DNA from: a virus
Virus genome (UHGV): UHGV-0275551
DNA: 64,000 nucleotides
Reading direction: 5' to 3' (one strand)
In this document: positions 17,046 to 26,173 of the stretch, piece after piece
Position numbering within the stretch: the stretch's first letter is position 1
Layout: every line of letters starts with the position of its first letter
The notes under the pieces: generated by a model
The model's database searches: none
The model's input: the letters and a program-made list of their open reading frames with translations, nothing else
Told to the model about the DNA's origin: nothing
Translations under genes and position numbers: made by a program

Positions 17046-18662
17046 TCAACGTCTAAGCCCCTCATATGGGTTTCCTCTCACTAAATCTGTGTGAGCACCC
17101 ATTGATGGTGGCTTGAATAATTTAACTTCGTTAAGACTGTTGAAAGCATCACTGGTAGCATCCACTTGGTCATCTTTAGTTTTACCATCACCACAAAAGC
17201 CTTCAAGCTCTTGAAAGTAAGCTTCATTCCAACTACCTCTCAAGACTTTTACAAGTCCAGCTTCAGAAGCAGCAGAAAATCCCGCAAAGCGGGTAACTTT
17301 ATCTTTATTTGTTGGTTTGGCTCTTGCACGATAACCTTTCTCGGCAAGTTTCCTGATGAGGGATGTTGCGTAGGATTTACCAGCAGCGCCTGGGTCTTGA
17401 GGGATAAAAATACCAGTTCGCTTACCGTCACTTTCAGCAGTCAAATTAATTTGTGTTTCGACTCCAGAGGGTCTATCTCTAAATCTTACTACATCAATGA
17501 TATAATAGCAACCGTCTTTTTTAGATTTACCCATCTTAACACCTGCTGTCCAGTCTGGATTAGGGTTAATCTCAGATGGTAAAGTTGCTGCTAAGTCCCA
17601 TGCTCTAACATCAAATACATCTTCTGGGAGTGAATCAACAATTTCACACCATTGTCTTTGCCAATAGTTTGAACCTTCTGCACGAGCCTTCCAGTTACCG
17701 AAACGAAGTCTTGCAACGTTTACAGGGGTGTTGTTTTCCAACTTACCACGGTACTTAGGCTCTAAGAAGTCAAGGATTGGGTTATCATCAATCGTACCAG
17801 AGATAAAGGTGTATGTTTGAGGAATCTCAAGAGGGAACATTTCAAGAATCTTGTCTCTCTCCCAATCAGAAACCATCACACCATCGTTCATTACATACCA
17901 ACGAATACGACCACACTTTTCAGGGTCTGGATAACCTTCTTCATCTAAGAATGGCTCTACCCAATCGTAAATAAAGTGGTCTCTGTCTGGGTTCATAGAA
18001 ATCTTCATGTATGAATCACCTTCAGCACCAGAACGTAGACGGGTTTGTAGGTATGAAATCTGTGAAGCAGAGAAGTGTGTACCTTCGTCAAAGTAAATAG
18101 CTGAGTATTCAATACCCTGATGACCTTCAGCGTGCTTTTCAAGTTCTAGGTAGGTAAACTTGATAGTTGCCCCAGAAGGGAATGTGATAGTCATTTTCTG
18201 CTCGTGAGGAATCCCACCAAACTTACCAAATAGTTTCTTTGCAGCAGGCCATAAACCACCTTGTAGCTGTGTTGTATTTCGACGGAAATATACAGCATTA
18301 TAGTTAGGGTCTTCAATAAATCTTAAAGAGTCCATTAACAATGCAGCAGTTTTACCAGCACCAGCAGCACCACCATAAAGAACCAAGTCAGCATTAGTGT
18401 TTAAAAAGACCTCTTGAGAACCCGGCTGAGGGGCTACATAATTCTTATCAGTCATCAATTTAAAGATAAGGCGAACTTGGTCTGGTGTGTATCTTAATAA
18501 AGTCAGAATTTGAGTTGGAAGGAATTTAGAGGGGTCTTTACCGAATGATTTGATAATTTCTTTTACTTCATCAGAAAGCCCCAACTCTCCAGCTAGGACT
18601 TTCCTAACATCTTCCACTCGCTTCTGCTTAACAGCATTTAAGTCCATTAAGCACCTCCGCAA
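17046..18662 (-). CDS. terminase large subunit
   Basis: 538 aa; Walker A LYGGAAGAGKT near N terminus, nuclease-like C half. Confidence 0.8.
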   Translation of the reverse strand: MRRCLMDLNAVKQKRVEDVRKVLAGELGLSDEVKEIIKSFGKDPSKFLPTQILTLLRYTPDQVRLIFKLMTDKNYVAPQPGSQEVFLNTNADLVLYGGAAGAGKTAALLMDSLRFIEDPNYNAVYFRRNTTQLQGGLWPAAKKLFGKFGGIPHEQKMTITFPSGATIKFTYLELEKHAEGHQGIEYSAIYFDEGTHFSASQISYLQTRLRSGAEGDSYMKISMNPDRDHFIYDWVEPFLDEEGYPDPEKCGRIRWYVMNDGVMVSDWERDKILEMFPLEIPQTYTFISGTIDDNPILDFLEPKYRGKLENNTPVNVARLRFGNWKARAEGSNYWQRQWCEIVDSLPEDVFDVRAWDLAATLPSEINPNPDWTAGVKMGKSKKDGCYYIIDVVRFRDRPSGVETQINLTAESDGKRTGIFIPQDPGAAGKSYATSLIRKLAEKGYRARAKPTNKDKVTRFAGFSAASEAGLVKVLRGSWNEAYFQELEGFCGDGKTKDDQVDATSDAFNSLNEVKLFKPPSMGAHTDLVRGNPYEGLRR

Positions 18663-18668
18663 ATAGAA

Positions 18669-18869
18669 TTATTCAGAGTCTGTAGCAGTCTCTTCTTTCT
18701 TAACTTCGAACTTTGCATCAACAGCATCAAGAAGTGCATCCATAGATGCTTCTTTAATATCAATACCTGTTGCTACAGACAATCTGTCTGCAATTGCCAT
18801 GATAGTATTCTGCATAAATTCTAGCTTTTTATTAGCTTCATAAAGTTCTTTATAAACGGTCTCGCTCAT
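18669..18869 (-). CDS. hypothetical small protein upstream of terminase
   Basis: 66-aa track ORF; acidic. Confidence 0.3.
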   Translation of the reverse strand: MSETVYKELYEANKKLEFMQNTIMAIADRLSVATGIDIKEASMDALLDAVDAKFEVKKEETATDSE

Positions 18870-18994
18870 TATGTTTTCTCCAAATAGTTAACCATGTTTC
18901 CCCTTAAAAAAGACGGCACAGAGACCGTCAAGGAGAAACCACAATGTACGTCAGAGACATACTGTATAAGTCTTCCTATAAAGTATAACTCTGT

Positions 18995-19055
18995 AAAAAA
19001 GCCCTGTCTAAAAATACTCTTCGGTAGCGAAAGGAAGAATACTTATAGCAGGGCA
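18995..19055 (-). terminator. rho-independent terminator after the tRNA array
   Basis: long imperfect hairpin closed by GCCCTG/CAGGGC, followed on the minus strand by TTTTTT. Confidence 0.45.
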
Positions 19056-19091
19056 TTATTATTATTTTAATTGAGAGAGAGTAAAATAACT

Positions 19092-19167
19092 TGGAGAATC
19101 CGAAGGGACTCGAACCCTTATAAACCTGTTTTGCAGACAGGCACATAGCCGTTTCTGTCACGGATTC
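19092..19167 (-). tRNA. tRNA-Cys (anticodon GCA)
   Basis: hand-folded cloverleaf; 7-bp acceptor gaatccg/cggattc, T-arm aaggg-actcgaa-ccctt on plus strand; sense anticodon loop CTGCAAA; CCA encoded. Confidence 0.6.
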
Positions 19168-19171
19168 AAAT

Positions 19172-19264
19172 TGGAGGAAGATACCAGACTTGAACTGGTA
19201 CACCGATTTCTCAGCTACTGGCAGTTTAGCAAACTGCTCCCTTACCTTTTAGGGTTAATCTTCC
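19172..19264 (-). tRNA. tRNA-Ser (anticodon GCT), class II
   Basis: 93 nt with long variable arm; acceptor ggaagat/atcttcc; sense anticodon arm GCAGT-TTGCTAA-ACTGC. Confidence 0.55.
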
Positions 19265-19266
19265 AT

Positions 19267-20001
19267 TTATTTCTGTAATGCGTTCTTCATTTCTGGTGTT
19301 GCAATAGTGTCAATTACACCAGTTTTACAAGCATCATCAAACCAGTCTGGTAAGATACCTGCTAAGAACCCATTGATATTCGTTTTAAGGTACTCTGCAA
19401 TAAGAGCAGCTTCTTCTTCAATCATCTGCACAACTTCATCTGCATAAGCTGTAATTTTTGAAATACCTTCATTAATCTTACTAACAGCTTGCTCAGCTAA
19501 ATCAGAAATAGTATCAAGACCTTTGTCAATAGCATCTTGTAAGTCACTTAACACACCATTAACACTATCTAGTGCACTGTTAATCGTATCAATAGCTTTT
19601 TGACCATACTCTGTAGCAACACCCATAATACCACTAAATGGTGTACAGCCAACTTGTTCACCTGCTGCACCCATAACATTAGAGTAACCTTTTGCTACCT
19701 GCATACGTGATGAAAACTCATCAATGGACTTTTGACCGTAATCTGTTAGTGTTTTGGTAGTTGATGTAGTGCTTGTCAGACTCGTGGTAAAGCTGTTAAG
19801 CAGAACTGTTGTAAGTCCAGCAGCAACAAGCTTATCCTTTACTGTAGGGTCTGATACAGAGCTAATAGAGCTTACAAGTGATGTAGAGGCAGCTACGGTT
19901 CCACCGAGAACTGCTGCACCAGTAATAAGGGGGTTAGAAAACCCTTTACCGGTTTTTAAGAGATTGAAAATCTCCTTACCTTGTTCTGTCATCTCTTTCA
20001 T
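19267..20001 (-). CDS. hypothetical Ser/Thr-rich protein embedded in tRNA array
   Basis: track ORF 19267..20064 shortened to the ATG at 20001 because the longer form overlaps tRNA-Phe; weak AAAGGTG RBS. Confidence 0.4.
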   Translation of the reverse strand: MKEMTEQGKEIFNLLKTGKGFSNPLITGAAVLGGTVAASTSLVSSISSVSDPTVKDKLVAAGLTTVLLNSFTTSLTSTTSTTKTLTDYGQKSIDEFSSRMQVAKGYSNVMGAAGEQVGCTPFSGIMGVATEYGQKAIDTINSALDSVNGVLSDLQDAIDKGLDTISDLAEQAVSKINEGISKITAYADEVVQMIEEEAALIAEYLKTNINGFLAGILPDWFDDACKTGVIDTIATPEMKNALQK

Positions 20002-20019
20002 TAAGCACCTTTGAAATTG

Positions 20020-20094
20020 GTAGTCCAGTGGGATTTGAACCCTCTTCTCATGTTTTTCAGACACGCGCTTTAACCATATAAGCTACTTGGACTA
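20020..20094 (-). tRNA. tRNA-Phe (anticodon GAA)
   Basis: acceptor tagtcca/tggacta perfect; sense anticodon arm CGTGT-CTGAAAA-ACATG; T-stem has one mismatch; CCA apparently incomplete. Confidence 0.5.
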
Positions 20095-20099
20095 TAAAT

Positions 20100-20175
20100 T
20101 GGGGTGACCTACGGGATTTGAACCCGTATAGACCATGTTCACAGCATGGGTCATTACCATTTATGATAAGGCCAC
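20100..20175 (-). tRNA. tRNA-His (anticodon GTG)
   Basis: sense anticodon arm CCATG-CTGTGAA-CATGG; discriminator C73; perfect T-arm. Confidence 0.6.
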
Positions 20176-20206
20176 ATTTAAGGACTCTCGTAAGAATCCT
20201 TAGAAG

Positions 20207-20282
20207 TGGCAGCGGCATAAGGATTTGAACCTTAATAGGACAGCTTCAGAGACTGCTGCATTGCCAGTTATGCTATACCGCT
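20207..20282 (-). tRNA. tRNA-Gln (anticodon CTG)
   Basis: sense anticodon loop CTCTGAA, stem with two G:U pairs; G73 discriminator; D-stem GCAT/ATGC. Confidence 0.5.
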
Positions 20283-20287
20283 AAATT

Positions 20288-20366
20288 TGGTACTCCATAT
20301 CGGATTCGAACCGATACATAACACAGATTTTAAGTCTGGCCTCTCTGCCAATTGGAGTAATGGAGC
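20288..20366 (-). tRNA. tRNA with Leu anticodon TAA, short variable loop
   Basis: 79 nt; sense anticodon arm CCAGA-CTTAAAA-TCTGT; Leu-type D-loop CAATTGGCAGAG; variable region about 7 nt; A73. Confidence 0.45.
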
Positions 20367-20368
20367 AT

Positions 20369-20444
20369 TGGCGGGGGATGTTGGAATTGAACCAACTTCT
20401 TCGATTTCAAAGACCGAGGTTTTAACCTTGTAAACTAATCCCCT
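20369..20444 (-). tRNA. tRNA-Gln (anticodon TTG)
   Basis: sense anticodon arm TCGGT-CTTTGAA-ATCGA; T-arm gttgg-aattgaa-ccaac; G73. Confidence 0.55.
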
Positions 20445-20452
20445 TTAAATCT

Positions 20453-21010
20453 TTACTTTCTTAGTGGATGAATAAAGAATGCCAACATAACTCTTTCCCT
20501 TGAAAATGCTCTTTCTTCTGGGACAACACTTTTAAGTTTCCACCCAACATAAATTCTCCAGTAAAATTGTTTACCAAAGATTTTGATTGACGGCACAAAA
20601 GCGAATAATCCCCAAGCATTACTGTTCCACATTAGGAGATAACCAGTCTGATTATCTTCAGGGTTAGAACTTACGTTGATATTACCTTTCCACTTAGTAA
20701 CATCTTTTACATCTCTTCCTAATACATGGTAAGAGAAGTTATAAGCTTTGTTTCTCCAGAGCCATCCAACTCTCTGCATGTAGACACCAAGCTTACCAAT
20801 CTTTCTAATCTTAGCCCATCGTTTGATATGACCTGCATCACCATCAATTGGGTTGTCATAAGTCTCCATCCATCTGAACCCGAAAGGTAAGTGTCCTTTC
20901 TTCTCACTGTAGAATGGAACTACAAAAGGTGCTAAGATAACTGCTAAGATTGCTGCAAATGGCTCTAACAAAGCTAAGAAAATCCATGAAGCATACTTTA
21001 AGTATCTCAT
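20453..21010 (-). CDS. hypothetical membrane protein embedded in tRNA array
   Basis: 185-aa track ORF; hydrophobic N terminus (IFLALLEPFAAILAVILAPFVVPF). Confidence 0.4.
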   Translation of the reverse strand: MRYLKYASWIFLALLEPFAAILAVILAPFVVPFYSEKKGHLPFGFRWMETYDNPIDGDAGHIKRWAKIRKIGKLGVYMQRVGWLWRNKAYNFSYHVLGRDVKDVTKWKGNINVSSNPEDNQTGYLLMWNSNAWGLFAFVPSIKIFGKQFYWRIYVGWKLKSVVPEERAFSRERVMLAFFIHPLRK

Positions 21011-21249
21011 TGTCTAATCCTCGTAAGGAGGTAAATGTTATTATTCGTTTCTAAACCTTCTGGTAAAACTGTCTCAAAAATAACACTCTTCAGATGTCTA
21101 CCACCAAAACAATCACGTATAAATCTTTCTACTCTAGCGGGGTCACATAAGTATCCCACTTTTAAGAAAATGTGGTGTTCAACACCAATGACCCTGACAA
21201 ACTCAATACTCTCACAGTTTTCATGTTCAACTACTGTTAATGTTTGCAT
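21007..21249 (-). CDS. hypothetical protein
   Basis: 80-aa track ORF, stop overlaps start of 20453..21010 ORF. Confidence 0.35.
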   Translation of the reverse strand: MQTLTVVEHENCESIEFVRVIGVEHHIFLKVGYLCDPARVERFIRDCFGGRHLKSVIFETVLPEGLETNNNIYLLTRIRQ

Positions 21250-21266
21250 AGTATCACCTTTTTATC

Positions 21267-21342
21267 TGGCGCAGGATAAGGGATTCGAACCCCTATTAAC
21301 AGCTTCGTAGACTGTTGCTCTTTCCATTTGAACTAATCCTGC
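21267..21342 (-). tRNA. tRNA-Arg (anticodon ACG)
   Basis: acceptor gcaggat/atcctgc perfect; sense anticodon arm ACAGT-CTACGAA-GCTGT. Confidence 0.55.
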
Positions 21343-21347
21343 AAAAT

Positions 21348-21425
21348 TGGTGTTCCAAGACGGATTCGAACCGTCACTAATACAAGGTTTGAGCTTGCAT
21401 CCTCTGCCAATTGGGATACTGGAAC
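21348..21425 (-). tRNA. tRNA with Leu anticodon CAA, short variable loop
   Basis: 78 nt; sense anticodon arm GCAAG-CTCAAAC-CTTGT; Leu-type D-loop CAATTGGCAGAG; perfect T-arm gacgg-attcgaa-ccgtc. Confidence 0.45.
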
Positions 21426-21426
21426 A

Positions 21427-21501
21427 TGGTACTCACTAAAGGACTTGAACCTTTTTCTTCATCTTGTAAGGGTGATGTTTTACCATATAAACTAAGCGAG
21501 T
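21427..21501 (-). tRNA. tRNA-Val (anticodon TAC)
   Basis: sense anticodon loop CTTACAA; T-arm aaagg-acttgaa-ccttt; D-stem gttt/aaac. Confidence 0.5.
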
Positions 21502-21502
21502 A

Positions 21503-21597
21503 TGGAAGAGGTCTGAAGTTGTGCCGCTAACTCAACTTCGTGGAATTTGTTACGGTCTTCAGTTGACTCAAAGCGGTCTTTCACTTGACCTCTGAAT
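21503..21597 (-). other. 95-nt structured spacer, possibly a degenerate tRNA or small RNA
   Basis: tgg + 7-bp terminal inverted repeat agaggtc/gacctct like an acceptor stem, internal 7-bp hairpin gaagttg/caacttc, but no canonical T-loop. Confidence 0.25.
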
Positions 21598-21673
21598 TGG
21601 TGCTCCCACAAGGACTCGAACCCTGATAAGTTGCTTACAAGGCAACCGTAATAACCAATTATACGATAGGAGC
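21598..21673 (-). tRNA. tRNA-Thr (anticodon TGT)
   Basis: sense anticodon arm GTTGC-CTTGTAA-GCAAC perfect; acceptor with one G:U. Confidence 0.6.
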
Positions 21674-21680
21674 ATTAATT

Positions 21681-21755
21681 TGGAGCATCCAGAGGGAATC
21701 GAACCCTCAACCTCAGTTTGGAAGACTGTAATTTTCCCGTTTAAACTATGGATGC
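21681..21755 (-). tRNA. tRNA-Gly (anticodon TCC)
   Basis: sense anticodon loop CTTCCAA; perfect T-arm gaggg-aatcgaa-ccctc; acceptor gcatcca/tggatgc. Confidence 0.5.
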
Positions 21756-21761
21756 ACTAAT

Positions 21762-21837
21762 TGGTGGAGTCACTGAGAATTGAACTCAGTTCCCAAGTTT
21801 GCAAAACTCGAATTTTAACCATATAAACTATGACCCC
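21762..21837 (-). tRNA. tRNA-Ala (anticodon TGC)
   Basis: sense anticodon arm CGAGT-TTTGCAA-ACTTG; G3:U70 pair and A73 as expected for Ala. Confidence 0.6.
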
Positions 21838-21843
21838 ATTGTT

Positions 21844-21919
21844 TGGTACAGGTGGAGGGAATTGAACCCATCGTCTTACTGATTAAGAGTCAGCCGCATA
21901 ACCATTTTGCTACACCTGC
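21844..21919 (-). tRNA. tRNA-Lys (anticodon CTT), weak T-stem
   Basis: best parse gives sense anticodon arm GCTGA-CTCTTAA-TCAGT; T-stem only 3 clean pairs; an alternative parse gave a poorer loop. Confidence 0.4.
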
Positions 21920-21926
21920 ATTAATT

Positions 21927-22003
21927 TGGTACACCTAGAGAGATTCGAACTCACACTGAGCAGATTCTAAGTCTGCTGCCTCTACCAGTTGGGCTATAGG
22001 TGC
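21927..22003 (-). tRNA. tRNA with Leu anticodon TAG, short variable loop
   Basis: 77 nt; sense anticodon arm GCAGA-CTTAGAA-TCTGC perfect; Leu-type D-arm GCC-CAACTGGTAGA-GGC; 5-nt variable loop. Confidence 0.5.
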
Positions 22004-22083
22004 ATTAAATCTTTTTAGAGAACTTCTAAGAACCTAAGCAACAAGGTTCCACAACAAGCTGTAATAACCTTAGAAGCCCTCTA

Positions 22084-22104
22084 AAAAGACCTAAATAGGT
22101 CTTT
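22084..22104 (-). terminator. hairpin terminator-like element downstream of the 22247..22588 ORF
   Basis: aaagacc-taaat-aggtcttt hairpin; short T-run on the minus strand. Confidence 0.35.
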
Positions 22105-22246
22105 GCATAGTCTTGTTTAATCCGGTGACTAGAACCTTTGGAGAGCTTGATATTATCTCTTCTCCGTGACACCTACTAGGTGCTTTGACAGTGTACGACA
22201 ATACACGAGGGATAAACCGACAATGCGAACAAGCATGGACGGAGTA

Positions 22247-22588
22247 TTAAATCTTTAAGCTAAGTTCAGTCTTAGACTTGATATCTTTAGCTTTGTAGAT
22301 GATGACTTTATCAAGTGGTTCAATGTAAACAGCTAAGTAATCAACTTGAGAGTTATCAAAATTCATTATTCTATTTTCATTCTTGTTAGAACGAACTCTT
22401 TTCAGTTGCACTCTCCAAAGTTCACCTCTTTTGACTGAGGTTGATTTTACCTCAACAGTCTCAATCAAACCATCTTTGTGAACTAGAAAGTCATACTTTG
22501 CATTATCTGTAGCTGGTGAATACACTTCATAACCTCTTTTGAGGAAAGCTAATTGTGTAGCAATTTCACCTACTGAACCTTTCTTCAT
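22247..22588 (-). CDS. PD-(D/E)XK-type nuclease-like protein, putative
   Basis: track ORF 22247..22768 shortened to ATG 22588 (strong AGGTGG RBS; longer form overlaps tRNA-Ser); motif YDFLVHKDG...IETVEVKS fits a D...E.K nuclease core. Confidence 0.4.
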   Translation of the reverse strand: MKKGSVGEIATQLAFLKRGYEVYSPATDNAKYDFLVHKDGLIETVEVKSTSVKRGELWRVQLKRVRSNKNENRIMNFDNSQVDYLAVYIEPLDKVIIYKAKDIKSKTELSLKI

Positions 22589-22611
22589 AATCACCACCTT
22601 AAAAATCATTT

Positions 22612-22698
22612 TGGCAGAGAGTGCAGGAGTCGAACCCGTACCGTTTCCAGCAGCACCAGTTTTCAAGGCTGGTTGGTCTCCGTTGACCGCCACTCTCT
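22612..22698 (-). tRNA. tRNA-Ser (anticodon TGA), class II
   Basis: 87 nt; acceptor agagagt/actctct perfect; sense anticodon loop CTTGAAA; long variable arm. Confidence 0.55.
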
Positions 22699-22711
22699 CC
22701 GAAACAATCTT

Positions 22712-22794
22712 TGGCATGGGACGGAGGAGTTGAACCCCTTTGAAACGGTTTTGGAGGCCGTTGCTCATGCCTTAGAGTCTTAACATCGTCCCAT
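22712..22794 (-). tRNA. tRNA with anticodon CCA (Trp?), atypical 83 nt
   Basis: perfect acceptor atgggac/gtcccat, G73, sense anticodon arm ACGGC-CTCCAAA-ACCGT, but the D-region is about 7 nt too long. Confidence 0.35.
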
Positions 22795-22936
22795 ATTATA
22801 ATTCGAAGCTTACCCTGTTATCTCAACACTGTCAAGCTTCTTCTCAGATTATTTACATGTTCTGGAAAACATGAGATACAGACCACCTCCCTACAGGAAG
22901 ACCCACTAAGGCCGTCTAAGTAATCTGCTAACTATT

Positions 22937-23013
22937 TGGTACACCCTACAGGATTCGAACCTGTAACTAACGATTTAGAAGACCGTTGCTCTATCCAATT
23001 GAACTAAGGGTGC
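22937..23013 (-). tRNA. tRNA-Arg (anticodon TCT)
   Basis: sense anticodon arm ACGGT-CTTCTAA-ATCGT; perfect T-arm acagg-attcgaa-cctgt. Confidence 0.6.
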
Positions 23014-23259
23014 ATTATCTTTAAAGACTCTCTTAGAAAGCCCTTAAAGATGCCCACCTTATTAATCATACCGTGGGCGAGTACGCCAAATTCTTTGATG
23101 AGGGATTGGAAGACCTCACTGGTGTTTAGCCTATCAAGCTACTGCCAGAAAAACATTGTCGTTTGCATTTATTTTAAATTTGCAAAATAGACGCTACGCA
23201 ACGAAAACTAAGGTTACTATAAAGTAGTCACATCTCAATGTCAACAACTTTATTGAAAT

Positions 23260-23335
23260 TGGTACTGGTAGGTGGAATCGAACCACCGATGTTCCCTTAT
23301 CAGGGGAGTGTTATAACCTTCTTAACTATACCAGC
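23260..23335 (-). tRNA. tRNA-Ile (anticodon GAT)
   Basis: sense anticodon loop CTGATAA; perfect T-arm ggtgg-aatcgaa-ccacc. Confidence 0.6.
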
Positions 23336-23336
23336 T

Positions 23337-23413
23337 TGGAGGTTCAGATGGGAATCGAACCCACATTCATAGGGCTTATGAGACCCTTGCATTACCTTAT
23401 CTGCGACTGAACC
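23337..23413 (-). tRNA. tRNA with anticodon CAT (Met or Ile2 type)
   Basis: sense anticodon arm AGGGT-CTCATAA-GCCCT; acceptor ggttcag/ctgaacc perfect. Confidence 0.55.
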
Positions 23414-23417
23414 ATAT

Positions 23418-23493
23418 TGGTAGAAGTGGAGGGATTCGAACCCATCGCCTGTCAGATTAAAAGTCTGCCGCATCACCATTCTGCTACACTTCC
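23418..23493 (-). tRNA. tRNA-Lys (anticodon TTT)
   Basis: sense anticodon loop CTTTTAA; T-arm gaggg-attcgaa-cccat. Confidence 0.55.
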
Positions 23494-23496
23494 ATT

Positions 23497-23640
23497 AAAT
23501 TATCTTTGTAGATAAGCTACCCAGACTTGCTTAAGGTCTGTAGCGATGTGCCTTTTTGGGTTTAAATCTAGAATTTACCCTTTCACCCTTTGTGGTCGCA
23601 TACTCACAGGTAAGCTTAATAACTTATCTACAAAGATAAT
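23497..23640. repeat. 19-bp inverted repeat bracketing about 105 bp inside a tRNA spacer
   Basis: aattatctttgtagataag (left arm) and its exact reverse complement cttatctacaaagataatt (right arm). Confidence 0.55.
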
Positions 23641-23785
23641 TACCAGACCGTTGTTTATCATCTTAAGTGCTACCATTACACCAACTCGACATCTGCCGAG
23701 TGAAGGAATCGAACCTTCGCCTTTTCTTTACCGAGAAATAGATTGTTTAAGTTTTGCTGTAAACGGTCTTCTGTAAATTTGTTGA
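23641..23785 (-). repeat. spacer unit (family shared with 24180-24262 and 24340-24430) containing a tRNA-like T-arm fragment
   Basis: begins taccagaccg, ends ttgctgtaaacggtcttctgtaaatttg; internal gaagg-aatcgaa-ccttc hairpin followed by ttttcttt. Confidence 0.4.
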
Positions 23786-23922
23786 GCCAGACCAAGTTTT
23801 AAATTTTTCAAAATTAAATTGGCTTGAAATTTCATACATTCTTGCTGTATTTGGTCTTCTGCTCCTTTAAAGAATACTCGTAAGAACTCTTTAAGGGAGG
23901 GGCTAAATAGCCCTCTCAAAAT

Positions 23923-24000
23923 TGGCGGTTATGAAGGGATTTGAACCCTCATCATCTCCCGTGACAGGGGAGTATTTTAACCAGATTAAACTACATAACC
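23923..24000 (-). tRNA. tRNA-Asp (anticodon GTC)
   Basis: sense anticodon arm CTCCC-CTGTCAC-GGGAG perfect; acceptor ggttatg/cataacc perfect. Confidence 0.6.
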
Positions 24001-24006
24001 TTTATT

Positions 24007-24094
24007 TGGTGTGCCGTGTAGGAGTCGAACCTACCGAGTCTCAATGACAAGGGATTTACAGTCCCCACCGCTACCATCTACGGGATAACGACAC
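24007..24094 (-). tRNA. tRNA-Tyr (anticodon GTA), class II
   Basis: 88 nt; sense anticodon loop CTGTAAA; perfect T-arm gtagg-agtcgaa-cctac; long variable arm. Confidence 0.55.
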
Positions 24095-24102
24095 ATTTAA
24101 TT

Positions 24103-24179
24103 TGGCGGTTAGTCAGGGATTCGAACCCTGTGCCATTCGCTTAACAGGCGACCGCACATACCTTATGTGCTTCCTAACC
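24103..24179 (-). tRNA. tRNA-Asn (anticodon GTT)
   Basis: sense anticodon loop CTGTTAA; D-stem GCAC/GTGC; perfect T-arm caggg-attcgaa-ccctg. Confidence 0.55.
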
Positions 24180-24262
24180 ATGTTTAGTATTACCAGACCG
24201 TATCTTTCAATTTTTCCGCTAAAAATTTAATAAATATTGCTGTAAACGGTCTTCTGTAAATT
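24180..24262 (-). repeat. spacer unit between tRNA-Asn and the second CAT tRNA
   Basis: shares taccagaccg start and ttgctgtaaacggtcttctgtaaatttgg end with the 23641-23785 unit. Confidence 0.45.
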
Positions 24263-24339
24263 TGGAGGCGGGTGCAGGAGTCGAACCTGCCGATACCATG
24301 CTAATGAGACATGTGAGACGCCCTTTCTCTATACCCGCA
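24263..24339 (-). tRNA. tRNA with anticodon CAT, pair 1:72 mismatched (initiator-like?)
   Basis: perfect T-arm gcagg-agtcgaa-cctgc; sense anticodon loop CTCATTA (position 37 is T); acceptor pair 1:72 is T:C. Confidence 0.45.
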
Positions 24340-24430
24340 ATTCTTAATGACCAGACCAAATCTCTTCTTTGTCCGATTTACCTTCAGATGAATAAGATTA
24401 AGTTTGCTGTAATTGGTCTTCTGTCAAAAC
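24340..24430 (-). repeat. spacer unit between the CAT tRNA and tRNA-Glu
   Basis: accagaccaaa start and tttgctgtaattggtcttctgtcaaaactgg end, degenerate copy of the spacer family. Confidence 0.4.
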
Positions 24431-24508
24431 TGGCGTTCCAGAAGGGATTTGAACCCTCAGATATCCACTTTGAAAGAGTGGTGACTTTACCGTTTTGTCT
24501 ACTGGAAC
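24431..24508 (-). tRNA. tRNA-Glu (anticodon TTC)
   Basis: sense anticodon arm CCACT-CTTTCAA-AGTGG perfect; acceptor gttccag/ctggaac perfect. Confidence 0.6.
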
Positions 24509-24515
24509 ATTAATT

Positions 24516-24592
24516 TGGTCTCTGTTGGAGGACTTGAACCTCCGGCCTTACCGCCCCAAACGGAACGCTCTACCAAGCTGAGCTAAACAGAG
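24516..24592 (-). tRNA. tRNA-Pro (anticodon TGG)
   Basis: sense anticodon loop TTTGGGG; perfect T-arm ggagg-acttgaa-cctcc; D-arm GCTC-AGCTTGGTA-GAGC. Confidence 0.55.
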
Positions 24593-24716
24593 ATAAACTT
24601 TTCAAACTCTATGTAACCACTTTAACATTATTTTTTAGTGGTTGTCAAGAACTTTTTTAAAATATTTTTCAGTATCTTAGAAAAGCTCTCATTTCGTTTC
24701 TATGTAGAACATATTA

Positions 24717-24756
24717 AAGGGTATTAAACACATTGTCAATACCCTTTTTAAAACTT
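24717..24756. terminator. 9-bp-stem hairpin with T-runs on both sides (bidirectional terminator candidate)
   Basis: aagggtatt / aataccctt stem, 12-nt loop, followed on plus strand by ttttaaaactttttacc; lies between the vWA gene and the tRNA array. Confidence 0.4.
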
Positions 24757-24757
24757 T

Positions 24758-26173
24758 TTACCAGATATAACGGTCAATCATTACTGCTTTGAGCATTACA
24801 CTGATTGGGTCAAACTTCTCACCACCAAGCAGAGCTTTTAAAGTGGCTGGAGAGAACCCTGATACCATTGCTACACCGTTATCCTTAACAGATACTTCGC
24901 AAGTACCATTACGGTTTGCTAAGTACCAGAATACCAGTTGTGGCATCTCATATCCAGCTTTTTTGTACTTACTCTGAATTGCTTCAAAGTTTGTACGACC
25001 GTTAGCCCCATCAACCTGATTAAACTCCATATCGGAGAAGATGATAAGCTTACTTGGCATATCTTTCTGAGTCAAGTTGTTTCTTTTGCCTGTCTCAAGA
25101 ATACGGTCAAAAGCTGCTTGTAAGTTAGTTGAGCCATATTCAACGTGTCGCATCACCTGACGATGACGGTTTCGTAAATCACCACTCAGTTCGATGAAGT
25201 GAGGGTTTGTTGAATAAACCATCAACTCATTCTTAAAGCAACCTGTATTGCGTTCTGCTACATACAAGGCAAGTGATACACCAATATCCAGAGCAGTAAT
25301 GGAGCCAAAATTCACCCAAGACATTGAACTTGATACATCAGACATACACAAGATGTTTTCACCTTCTGCCATCCAGTTTGGTAGTGCTTTCCACTGCTCA
25401 TTAGCAACATCTGCATTACCATGCTTGACAGATTTAATCACATCGTATGGGTAAACAGCACCAGCATTAATCTTAGCCTCACCTTTTGATAAGGACTCAA
25501 TGTAAGCTTTGTAACGTTCTCCATCCTTACGGTTAAACAGTTTTTGGTAACGTGCAGCAGCAAGTGAGGGAACCTTACTGTAGTCAATCTTGCCAAACTC
25601 ATTAGCAGAGATTTTTTGCTCAACTGTATCAGATAGTGCAGATAACAGTGTGCGGTACTCTTTCTCGCTCAAGTTGGCAAACTTGCAGAAACGTTTTACA
25701 AACTGCTTATGACGTGGTTTGACTCGTGGTAACCACTTAGCCGCCAAACCTGCTGTTGCAGGGTCTAGTAATGCTGCTTCTAAATGTTTGAAGGCATCTG
25801 TCTCGAAACAAGTACCCACGAAGATTTTGAAGTCATCAAAACGACCAAGTTCTGCAATCTTATCCATAATGCGAAGAACCTGTGTAGGCTCTAAAACTTT
25901 ATCTTCAATTGCTTGAAGCAAAACAGTTCTGAAGGCTTTACGCTCACCCATACCTTCTCGTACATCTCGCATATGAAGCAAAATACGAACTGCAACATCA
26001 ACATCCTCACGCAAAGCTTTGTAGAACAAGTCTGGTAAGATTTCTACATTGCTACGGCTTGAACCAGCAGCTTTGTAAAAGTCTACAAGAGCAGACATTG
26101 ATGAAGTATGGTTTACAGCACCATTTTCAGTTCGACCTGCATGAAGGTGCGCATGTTTAAATAATTCGCTCAT
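24758..26173 (-). CDS. vWA-domain protein with about 280-aa helical N-terminal domain
   Basis: 471 aa; MIDAS-like DxSxS (ILCMSDVSSSMSW) and KLIIFSDMEF strand typical of von Willebrand A domains. Confidence 0.55.
   Translation of the reverse strand: MSELFKHAHLHAGRTENGAVNHTSSMSALVDFYKAAGSSRSNVEILPDLFYKALREDVDVAVRILLHMRDVREGMGERKAFRTVLLQAIEDKVLEPTQVLRIMDKIAELGRFDDFKIFVGTCFETDAFKHLEAALLDPATAGLAAKWLPRVKPRHKQFVKRFCKFANLSEKEYRTLLSALSDTVEQKISANEFGKIDYSKVPSLAAARYQKLFNRKDGERYKAYIESLSKGEAKINAGAVYPYDVIKSVKHGNADVANEQWKALPNWMAEGENILCMSDVSSSMSWVNFGSITALDIGVSLALYVAERNTGCFKNELMVYSTNPHFIELSGDLRNRHRQVMRHVEYGSTNLQAAFDRILETGKRNNLTQKDMPSKLIIFSDMEFNQVDGANGRTNFEAIQSKYKKAGYEMPQLVFWYLANRNGTCEVSVKDNGVAMVSGFSPATLKALLGGEKFDPISVMLKAVMIDRYIW

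Follow-up and report, generated by a model that had tools for sequence, protein, structure and literature searches.

What a small nuclease gene might be doing inside a transfer RNA (tRNA) array is the question raised by a 113-amino-acid (aa) open reading frame (ORF) in the virus genome UHGV-0275551, a Felixounavirus (Ounavirinae) of which a stretch of 64,000 nucleotides (nt), hereafter the window, was analyzed. A preliminary description had named the product a PD-(D/E)XK-like nuclease and had listed a homing-type endonuclease, an RNA-processing enzyme, and a resolvase-like protein as its possible roles. From the evidence given below, we consider it probable that the ORF is a free-standing PD-(D/E)XK homing endonuclease gene, which would move together with a probably cleavage-resistant allele of the adjacent tRNA-Ser gene in a SegB-like manner. 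The argument turns on the following features.

22247..22588, minus strand: predicted PD-(D/E)XK endonuclease ORF, 113 aa, stop codon included, with residues E8, D33, E46, and K48
22591..22600, minus strand: Shine-Dalgarno sequence AAGGTGGTGA, 2 nt 5' of the ATG, read off the sequence
22612..22698, minus strand: tRNA-Ser(UGA) "allele A", 87 nt, CCA encoded, called by ARAGORN and linked to the endonuclease gene
22247..22708 (approximate), minus strand: variable cassette, consisting of about 10 nt 5' of tRNA-Ser, allele A, a 23-nt spacer with the ribosome binding site (RBS), and the ORF

The ORF, with its ATG at 22588-22586 and its TAA at 22249-22247, resides in an array of 26 tRNA genes spanning 19092-24592, all of which were called by ARAGORN on the minus strand. 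It starts 23 nt past the encoded CCA of tRNA-Ser(UGA) and ends 243 nt ahead of tRNA-Leu(UAG), and its placement between tRNAs was thus as previously described. An automatic ORF list contained a longer, 173-aa version (22247-22768) initiated from an upstream ATG at 22768. This version was rejected because the homologues begin at the internal ATG with the RBS; its N-terminal 60 residues are an artefact, namely an antisense-frame reading of tRNA-Ser and a tRNA-like element. Existing annotation has handled the gene unevenly: it has often been missed, as in the public records of phages Barry (L001) and Tribble, or over-extended through tRNA-Ser, as in the coding sequences of the GenBank records of EC106 (L017 2821-3342) and SPJ41 (L018 2872-3342), or, in other phages, designated "Holliday junction resolvase". 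A promoter and terminator consensus scan of 21900-23100 gave nothing exceeding the shuffled expectation, and no promoter of its own can be claimed for the gene.

The ratio of nonsynonymous to synonymous substitution rates (dN/dS) of the ORF was 0.10 in comparison with a variant of 83% aa identity, and 0.06-0.10 in comparison with a variant of 71% aa identity, at a synonymous divergence (dS) of at least 1. These values indicate that the ORF is under purifying selection.

In a Pfam scan of the protein, PF11645 (PDDEXK_5) alone exceeded the threshold, matching residues 2-109 with 63 bits (cut-off 26.1; E 3.9e-17), and no GIY-YIG domain was found. A phmmer search against PDB sequences returned a single significant entry, 2OST, which is the homing endonuclease I-Ssp6803I (E 3.7e-6). 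PADLOC matched its generic "HEase" model (E 1.6e-8) and, weakly, PDC-S01, and the NCBIfam profiles gave no significant match; a reading of the gene as part of a defence system was accordingly set aside. The domain assignment itself is already found in public annotation (gp88 of phage CHB7). An exhaustive HMMER search collected 663 cluster representatives at E <= 1e-3, nearly all of which were 105-150 aa in length, and residue conservation was counted in an alignment of 109 of them. D33 was conserved in 109/109, K48 in 108/109, D83 in 107/109, and E8 in 97/109, and position 46 was occupied by E, S, or Q, the last being the residue of I-Ssp6803I. In the phmmer alignment, D33 and K48 paired with an Asp and a Lys of 2OST, respectively. 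The sequence motif noted in the preliminary description was present, with D33 in YDFLVHKDG and E46-V-K48 in IETVEVKS.

A structural model built with AlphaFold2 from the 109-homologue alignment had a mean predicted local distance difference test score (pLDDT) of 95.8 and a predicted template modelling score (pTM) of 0.86. The model places E8 on helix 1, D33 where a β-strand begins, and E46-x-K48 on the strand that follows, as is canonical for PD-(D/E)XK enzymes. When the model was compared with the PDB by Foldseek, chains A-D of 2OST ranked at the top (query-normalised template modelling (TM) score 0.84, root-mean-square deviation 2.1 Å, 111 columns), and EcoRV, the SPARDA DREN domains, Hjc resolvases (TM ~0.5-0.6, E >0.01), and a tRNA-splicing endonuclease (TM 0.47) followed far behind. 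By sequence, predicted fold, and motif, the ORF product belongs to the I-Ssp6803I family, as a predicted minimal DNA endonuclease of 113 aa. The nuclease call made earlier from the motif was thus well supported, in that the structure prediction revealed neither a non-nuclease fold nor missing catalytic residues, and the Pfam score, the low dN/dS, and the high pLDDT likewise upheld the 113-aa ORF with its strong RBS.

Among closely related phages, the gene is rare. The 1.15-kb region around it is 97% identical to that of the Escherichia phages Barry and Tribble, and most Ounavirinae align over this region in two pieces that leave out ~345 nt. By tblastn at an identity of at least 95%, the ORF was found in eight phage records (EC106, LF110P1, Barry, Tribble, CHB7, SPJ41, SWJM-02, and NJ12), corresponding to ~3% of the roughly 250-270 Ounavirinae records. 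Over the terminase and portal segment, located 3.5 kb away, the nearest relatives of the window (99.6-99.0% identity) include Escherichia typing phage 1 (99.6%), which was shown to lack the ORF, and wV8, heid, and VpaE1, which are outside the list of eight carriers. Only two carriers, LF110P1 and EC106, were among the top 60 by terminase and portal. Furthermore, CHB7 belongs to another genus, Suspvirus, and its cassette is nevertheless 98-99% identical, with an ORF dS of 0.03-0.04 to the window and to Barry, and adjoins a very different allele of tRNA-Leu(UAG). The carriers are therefore no clade, and the distribution of the gene is horizontal, across genera as well. In phage LNA6, a single paralogue of 71% identity was found at another site, 15 nt after tRNA-Arg(UCU) on the opposite side of the tRNA-Ser gene. 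The ORF of the window sits between two intact tRNA genes, and a search of 18500-25000 revealed no Rfam match to a group I intron at E values up to 1, the output consisting of tRNAs and noise only; we thus regard the gene as free-standing.

Alignment with the ORF-less phage fjerdesal revealed that the difference is no simple insertion of the ORF, and that the neighboring tRNA-Ser(UGA) is also a different allele. No other feature of the locus is as informative as this linkage to a divergent tRNA-Ser allele, which had been overlooked in the preliminary description. The cassette of ~460 nt replaces ~110 nt containing another allele, allele B, in the ORF-less phages. Both flanks are nearly identical between the window and fjerdesal and the boundaries are sharp, with the right junction lying at the stop codon of the ORF, where a microhomology TAA(T/A)AAGATTTA was observed. 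Over the interval from tRNA-Arg to tRNA-Leu, apart from the ORF, the difference between the two phages is confined to tRNA-Ser and ~10 nt 5' of it, besides one or two scattered point changes in the spacers.

Allele A shares only 66-68% identity with the 90-nt allele B of the ORF-less Ounavirinae. Both alleles fold as type-II cloverleaves, and they differ in the variable arm and in every stem; in allele A, the variable arm is shorter by 4 nt, the acceptor end has an A1-U72 pair, and the stems contain two mismatches. By blastn at an identity of at least 97%, allele A was recovered from exactly the eight ORF-carrying phage records, the next best matches (80%) falling on tRNA-Ser genes from Vequintavirinae, PVP-SE1 among them, whereas allele B was recovered at an identity of at least 90% from ~242 records. 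Five more assemblies pair allele A with the ORF (L010-L012, L016, and L028), namely three Logan contigs with an ORF of 83% identity, CYGL01000008.1, and QZLY01000041.1. Neither allele A without the ORF nor a window-type ORF with allele B was seen. A metagenome scan with an allele-A 32-mer yielded two contigs, both with the ORF, and scans of IMG/VR with the 32-mer and with the protein gave no matches. A chimeric 89-aa ORF (P0013), seemingly truncated or fused, was considered as a decaying copy and was rejected as an assembly artefact, since it lies in an inverted duplication at the end of contig CYGL01000008.1 (L016/L027). Between cassettes, allele A is 99-100% identical even though the linked ORF has diverged to a dS of ~1.1 (83% aa identity) and the 23-nt spacer differs. 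The tRNA-Ser allele is thus constrained in its own right.

To see whether proximity to tRNA genes is peculiar to the window, the neighborhoods of homologues were inspected in 17 distinct phage lineages. A tRNA gene was located within 200 nt of the homologue in 13/17, often at a distance of 0-24 nt, as listed below.

Window type: tRNA-Ser(UGA)
LNA6: tRNA-Arg
Vibrio pVp-1: tRNA-Leu
Vibrio AG74: tRNA-Met and tRNA-Asn
Streptomyces Navo and Jada: tRNA-Ser(GCU), on either side
Arthrobacter Racecar: tRNA-Arg
Cyanophage Sf-FR1: tRNA-Arg and tRNA-Val
Enterococcus EFP01: tRNA-Arg
Vequintavirinae UPEC06: tRNA-Tyr
Exiguobacterium vB_EalM-132: tRNA-Asn
Haloarchaeal virus HATV-2: tRNA-Ala
Metagenomic phage L013: tRNA-Leu

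In three other lineages (KP32, phiIBB-PAA2, and PJNS034), the homologue directly follows the DNA polymerase gene, with no tRNA in the 1-2.5 kb of flanking sequence inspected. Conserved tRNA and polymerase genes are classic targets of homing endonucleases. The closest non-enterobacterial homologues (36-39% identity) all adjoin type-II tRNA genes (Ser or Leu), an anecdotal pattern which is suggestive of a specificity that may track phylogeny. In pVp-1, ARAGORN additionally called an 87-nt "tRNA-Gly(UCC)" just downstream of the PDDEXK_5 gene (L006 3038-3124), an odd length for a glycine tRNA, and this element may be a type-II-like or misassigned tRNA. Two related metagenomic contigs, L013 and L014 (2501-3300), were also found to differ downstream of the PDDEXK_5 gene, the former carrying three tRNA genes (Leu, Leu, and Gly) and the latter, which has no tRNAs there, another PDDEXK_5 gene in tandem with the first and an ORF of 220 aa.

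The low presence of ~3%, the sharp boundaries, the inheritance that does not follow clades, the paralogue at another site, and the positions elsewhere that are typical of homing endonuclease genes led us to favor a homing-type endonuclease. Of the three roles considered in the preliminary description, this was the one that gained from the comparative evidence; the resolvase option lost ground through the modest similarity to Hjc and the non-core status of the gene, and the RNA-processing option through the metal-dependent, DNase-type motif. In the mechanism that we propose, the nuclease gene would probably be co-transcribed with the tRNA array, given that no promoter stands out, and translated from its strong Shine-Dalgarno sequence, and the enzyme would probably act as a dimer or a tetramer like I-Ssp6803I. 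When a carrier shares a cell with an ORF-less relative, the enzyme would cut the genome of the latter in or beside the resident tRNA-Ser(UGA) of allele B, and repair of the double-strand break on the ORF-carrying template would copy the ORF and allele A together. The sequence differences of allele A would protect the carrier from self-cleavage, and its supply of tRNA-Ser(UGA) would be kept.

We place the presumed target in the tRNA-Ser region because tRNA-Ser and its 10-nt leader are, beside the ORF, essentially the sole difference between the window and fjerdesal from tRNA-Arg to tRNA-Leu. Within this region, our favored guess would be the pseudo-palindromic segment of the anticodon stem-loop. 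In both alleles, self-complementarity over 19-23 nt is highest in the anticodon stem-loop (16/19 in allele B and 14/19 in allele A), the 19-mer of which differs at 3/19 positions between the alleles. This assignment is a prediction, suggestive only, and was kept out of the evidence.

Several considerations weigh against homing. Cleavage, the target site, and the homing itself are all read from comparative genomics, and a single-origin cassette spread by ordinary recombination would equally give the linkage between the ORF and allele A. The linkage proves neither the targeting of allele B nor the resistance of allele A. In LNA6, the paralogue adjoins an allele-B tRNA-Ser identical to that of the ORF-less phage pSJ21, and no protective polymorphism specific to the paralogue is visible in the tRNA-Ser there. 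The protein is devoid of the C-terminal ~35 residues of I-Ssp6803I, and a 113-aa subunit might be too small to read a long specific site. An efficient homing element might sweep through a population; the frequency of ~3% may mean that this one arrived recently, has little activity, or carries a cost. Bacterial anti-phage systems likewise contain PF11645 domains (PMC10952713), and the fold alone is no proof of homing. It is mainly the compatibility of plain recombinational spread of the cassette with the sequence data that keeps our confidence in the homing endonuclease at the level of probable rather than firm.

Among the other explanations, the one that survives best, though we regard it as unlikely, is that a homing or competition nuclease spread, or is now mainly maintained, through a benefit of its cargo, such that allele A escapes a host tRNA-cleaving defence or becomes amplified, as in an anti-defence module of the SegB/tRNA-Tyr type. 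The amplification of tRNA-Tyr that SegB drives defeats Septu, a defence that acts by cutting the variable loop of the tRNA, and homologues of SegB show an enrichment beside tRNAs (PMC13096335). The strong selection on the tRNA that follows from the conservation of allele A relative to the ORF fits such a benefit, as do the differences between alleles A and B in the variable arm and all stems, and the allelic dimorphism with compensatory stem changes seen in further tRNAs of the array. However, no defence system targeting tRNA-Ser(UGA) was identified in this analysis, and tandem amplification was seen neither in the window nor in its relatives. With its A1-U72 pair and two stem mismatches, allele A is also unlike an improved tRNA, and the frequency of ~3% speaks against a broad advantage.

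It is improbable, in our judgment, that the ORF encodes a non-mobile phage nuclease, serving in the resolution of Holliday junctions or other branched DNA, the degradation of host DNA, or superinfection exclusion, which came to lie by chance in a recombination-prone tRNA array. The occurrence of PF11645 domains in defence systems would accord with this, some database records do name the homologues "Holliday junction resolvase", and Hjc appears among the fold matches; the match to I-Ssp6803I is nevertheless far better, and comparison with the PHROG resolvase family gave an E value of 0.069. Moreover, ~97% of the very close relatives with the same host range are devoid of the gene, and thus a core function in replication or recombination is not indicated, and a recurrent position right beside a tRNA or DNA polymerase gene, as seen in unrelated phages, typifies homing endonuclease genes rather than resolvases.

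Action on RNA, in the processing, cleavage, or repair of the tRNA precursors of the array, might be suggested by the short distance of 0-24 nt from tRNA 3' ends in several lineages, the InterPro structural superfamily "tRNA endonuclease-like" in the annotation of CHB7 gp88, and a weak Foldseek match to the splicing endonuclease 3AJV (TM 0.47, E 0.03). It is very improbable, since the conserved set of E8, D33, E46, and K48 is that of a metal-dependent E/D/(E)xK DNase and not the Tyr-His-Lys triad of EndA, the sole characterised member of the family is a DNA cutter (PMC3384342), ~97% of the relatives with the same array process their tRNAs without the gene, and the three lineages with the gene after DNA polymerase have no tRNA in the flanks inspected.

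The immediate surroundings of the putative homing endonuclease gene within the array are as follows.

22937..23013, minus strand: tRNA-Arg(UCU), the upstream neighbor, 15 nt after which the LNA6 paralogue is inserted
22712..22795, minus strand: tRNA-like element, forming the left homologous flank, with a 9-nt anticodon-type loop, found in ORF-carrying and ORF-less phages
22004..22246, minus strand: structured spacer of 243 nt, forming the right homologous flank from the ORF to tRNA-Leu(UAG), conserved in ORF-less phages
21927..22003, minus strand: tRNA-Leu(UAG), the downstream neighbor, called by ARAGORN

The tRNA-like element adjoins tRNA-Ser on its upstream side and was kept in all five aligned phages. 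Its fold is cloverleaf-like (z-score -2.3), with a long stem of acceptor type, a 5-bp stem topped by the 9-nt loop, and a T-arm-like hairpin; the element gave a weak Rfam match to tRNA-Sec (23 bits) and no ARAGORN call. The 243-nt spacer had a minimum free energy z-score of -4.0 and contains a long imperfect hairpin right ahead of tRNA-Leu(UAG).

Allelic variation was not limited to tRNA-Ser(UGA). Two distinct alleles each of tRNA-Arg(UCU) and tRNA-Leu(UAG), with compensatory stem changes, also occur among the Ounavirinae (window, L004, L005, and L010), and allele B of tRNA-Ser comprises two subtypes with a swapped base pair in the anticodon stem. As judged from these comparisons, the tRNA array is an allelic mosaic. 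Sliding identity between the window and four ORF-carrying phages consisted of blocks of 70-100% throughout, with no clean co-conversion gradient centred on the cassette. In other inter-tRNA slots of the same array, HNH homing endonuclease genes are annotated in pSJ21 and SPJ41, and such slots in relatives were found immediately 5' of tRNA-Leu(UAG) and in the gap that separates tRNA-Asp from tRNA-Tyr (L004 1606-2058 and 3728-4156; L018 1151-1579). The array is thus a general landing pad for homing endonuclease genes.

The array of the window contains three other ORFs, in which the preliminary description had seen no recognisable domains. All of them in fact match recognised families (Pfam and PHROG, E 1e-37 to 1e-111), although these families are of no known function.

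19267-20001, minus strand: DUF7217 (E 1e-88), with weak coiled-coil and tape-measure-like PHROG similarities
20453-21010, minus strand: DUF7338 (E 1e-61), with a hydrophobic N-terminus suggesting a membrane protein
21007-21249, minus strand: 80 aa, phrog_14202 (E 1e-37)

The DUF7217 and DUF7338 proteins are conserved residents of the array across the Ounavirinae. The segment with the phrog_14202 ORF is also variable in presence, being missing from EC106, SPJ41, and NJ12 and poorly conserved in CHB7.

If the ORF is indeed a homing endonuclease gene, it would be the first member of the I-Ssp6803I family in the literature searched to be both free-standing and carried by a phage; this search, of limited coverage, returned no description of such a member or of a linkage to a tRNA allele. 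The family has been described as cyanobacterial and intron-encoded (PMC3384342, PMC3943268, PMC13011429). The enzyme would then represent a second selfish nuclease that remodels phage tRNA arrays besides SegB of T4, to which it is structurally unrelated, the remodelling in this case being the swap of a tRNA allele. It would help to explain the mosaic tRNA arrays of Felix-O1-like therapeutic and typing phages, and would offer a very small (113 aa) scaffold for a sequence-specific nuclease. A broader and doubtful extension, which we put forward only tentatively, is that phage members of the I-Ssp6803I family as a group target tRNA genes, read the pseudo-palindromes of tRNA stems, and spread as cassettes of a nuclease plus a resistant tRNA allele. 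Were this the case, phage tRNA arrays would owe their allelic mosaicism and turnover in large part to a driver that has escaped notice until now, across phages of Enterobacteria and Actinobacteria, cyanophages, and even haloarchaeal viruses, and the tRNA alleles swapped in might also evade host tRNA-cleaving defences.

Four known systems allow the gene to be placed. I-Ssp6803I (2OST; PF11645), encoded in the group I intron of Synechocystis tRNA-fMet, shares with the window protein the Pfam family, the fold, the D...xK core, and an equivalent of D83, and both nuclease genes are genetically tied to a tRNA gene. I-Ssp6803I is, however, intron-encoded and cyanobacterial, whereas the window gene is free-standing and phage-borne; the former comprises ~150 aa with a C-terminal extension that the 113-aa protein lacks, and has Gln where the latter has the canonical E8 and E46. 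I-Ssp6803I acts as a tetramer on a 23-bp pseudo-palindrome (PMC3384342). Archaeal Hjc is also a small PD-(D/E)XK enzyme with an E...D...ExK signature, and some phage homologues are annotated accordingly, but it is the weaker structural match (TM ~0.5-0.6), and the window gene is non-core and appears to behave as a mobile element. The HNH homing endonucleases of pSJ21 and SPJ41 occupy the same type of slot in the same array with the same pattern of presence and absence, although they belong to the ββα-Me HNH family and are found in other slots.

The closest likeness in lifestyle is to T4 SegB, the gene of which resides among the tRNA genes. SegB recognises their TψC-coding motif, cuts inside tRNA-gene sequence, and drives the inheritance of its own gene and of neighboring tRNA genes (PMC2330249). 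Like SegB, the window gene appears as a free-standing endonuclease gene within a phage tRNA array and is absent from close relatives, and homologues of SegB are statistically tied to tRNAs (PMC13096335), as the PDDEXK_5 homologues are here. The function of SegB has been shown experimentally, whereas that of the window gene is proposed from sequence comparison, and the cargo of SegB consists of extra tRNA genes, whereas that of the window gene would be the allelic replacement of one tRNA. Considering that SegB has a GIY-YIG fold and the window protein a predicted PD-(D/E)XK fold, the resemblance between the two is one of lifestyle and not of homology.

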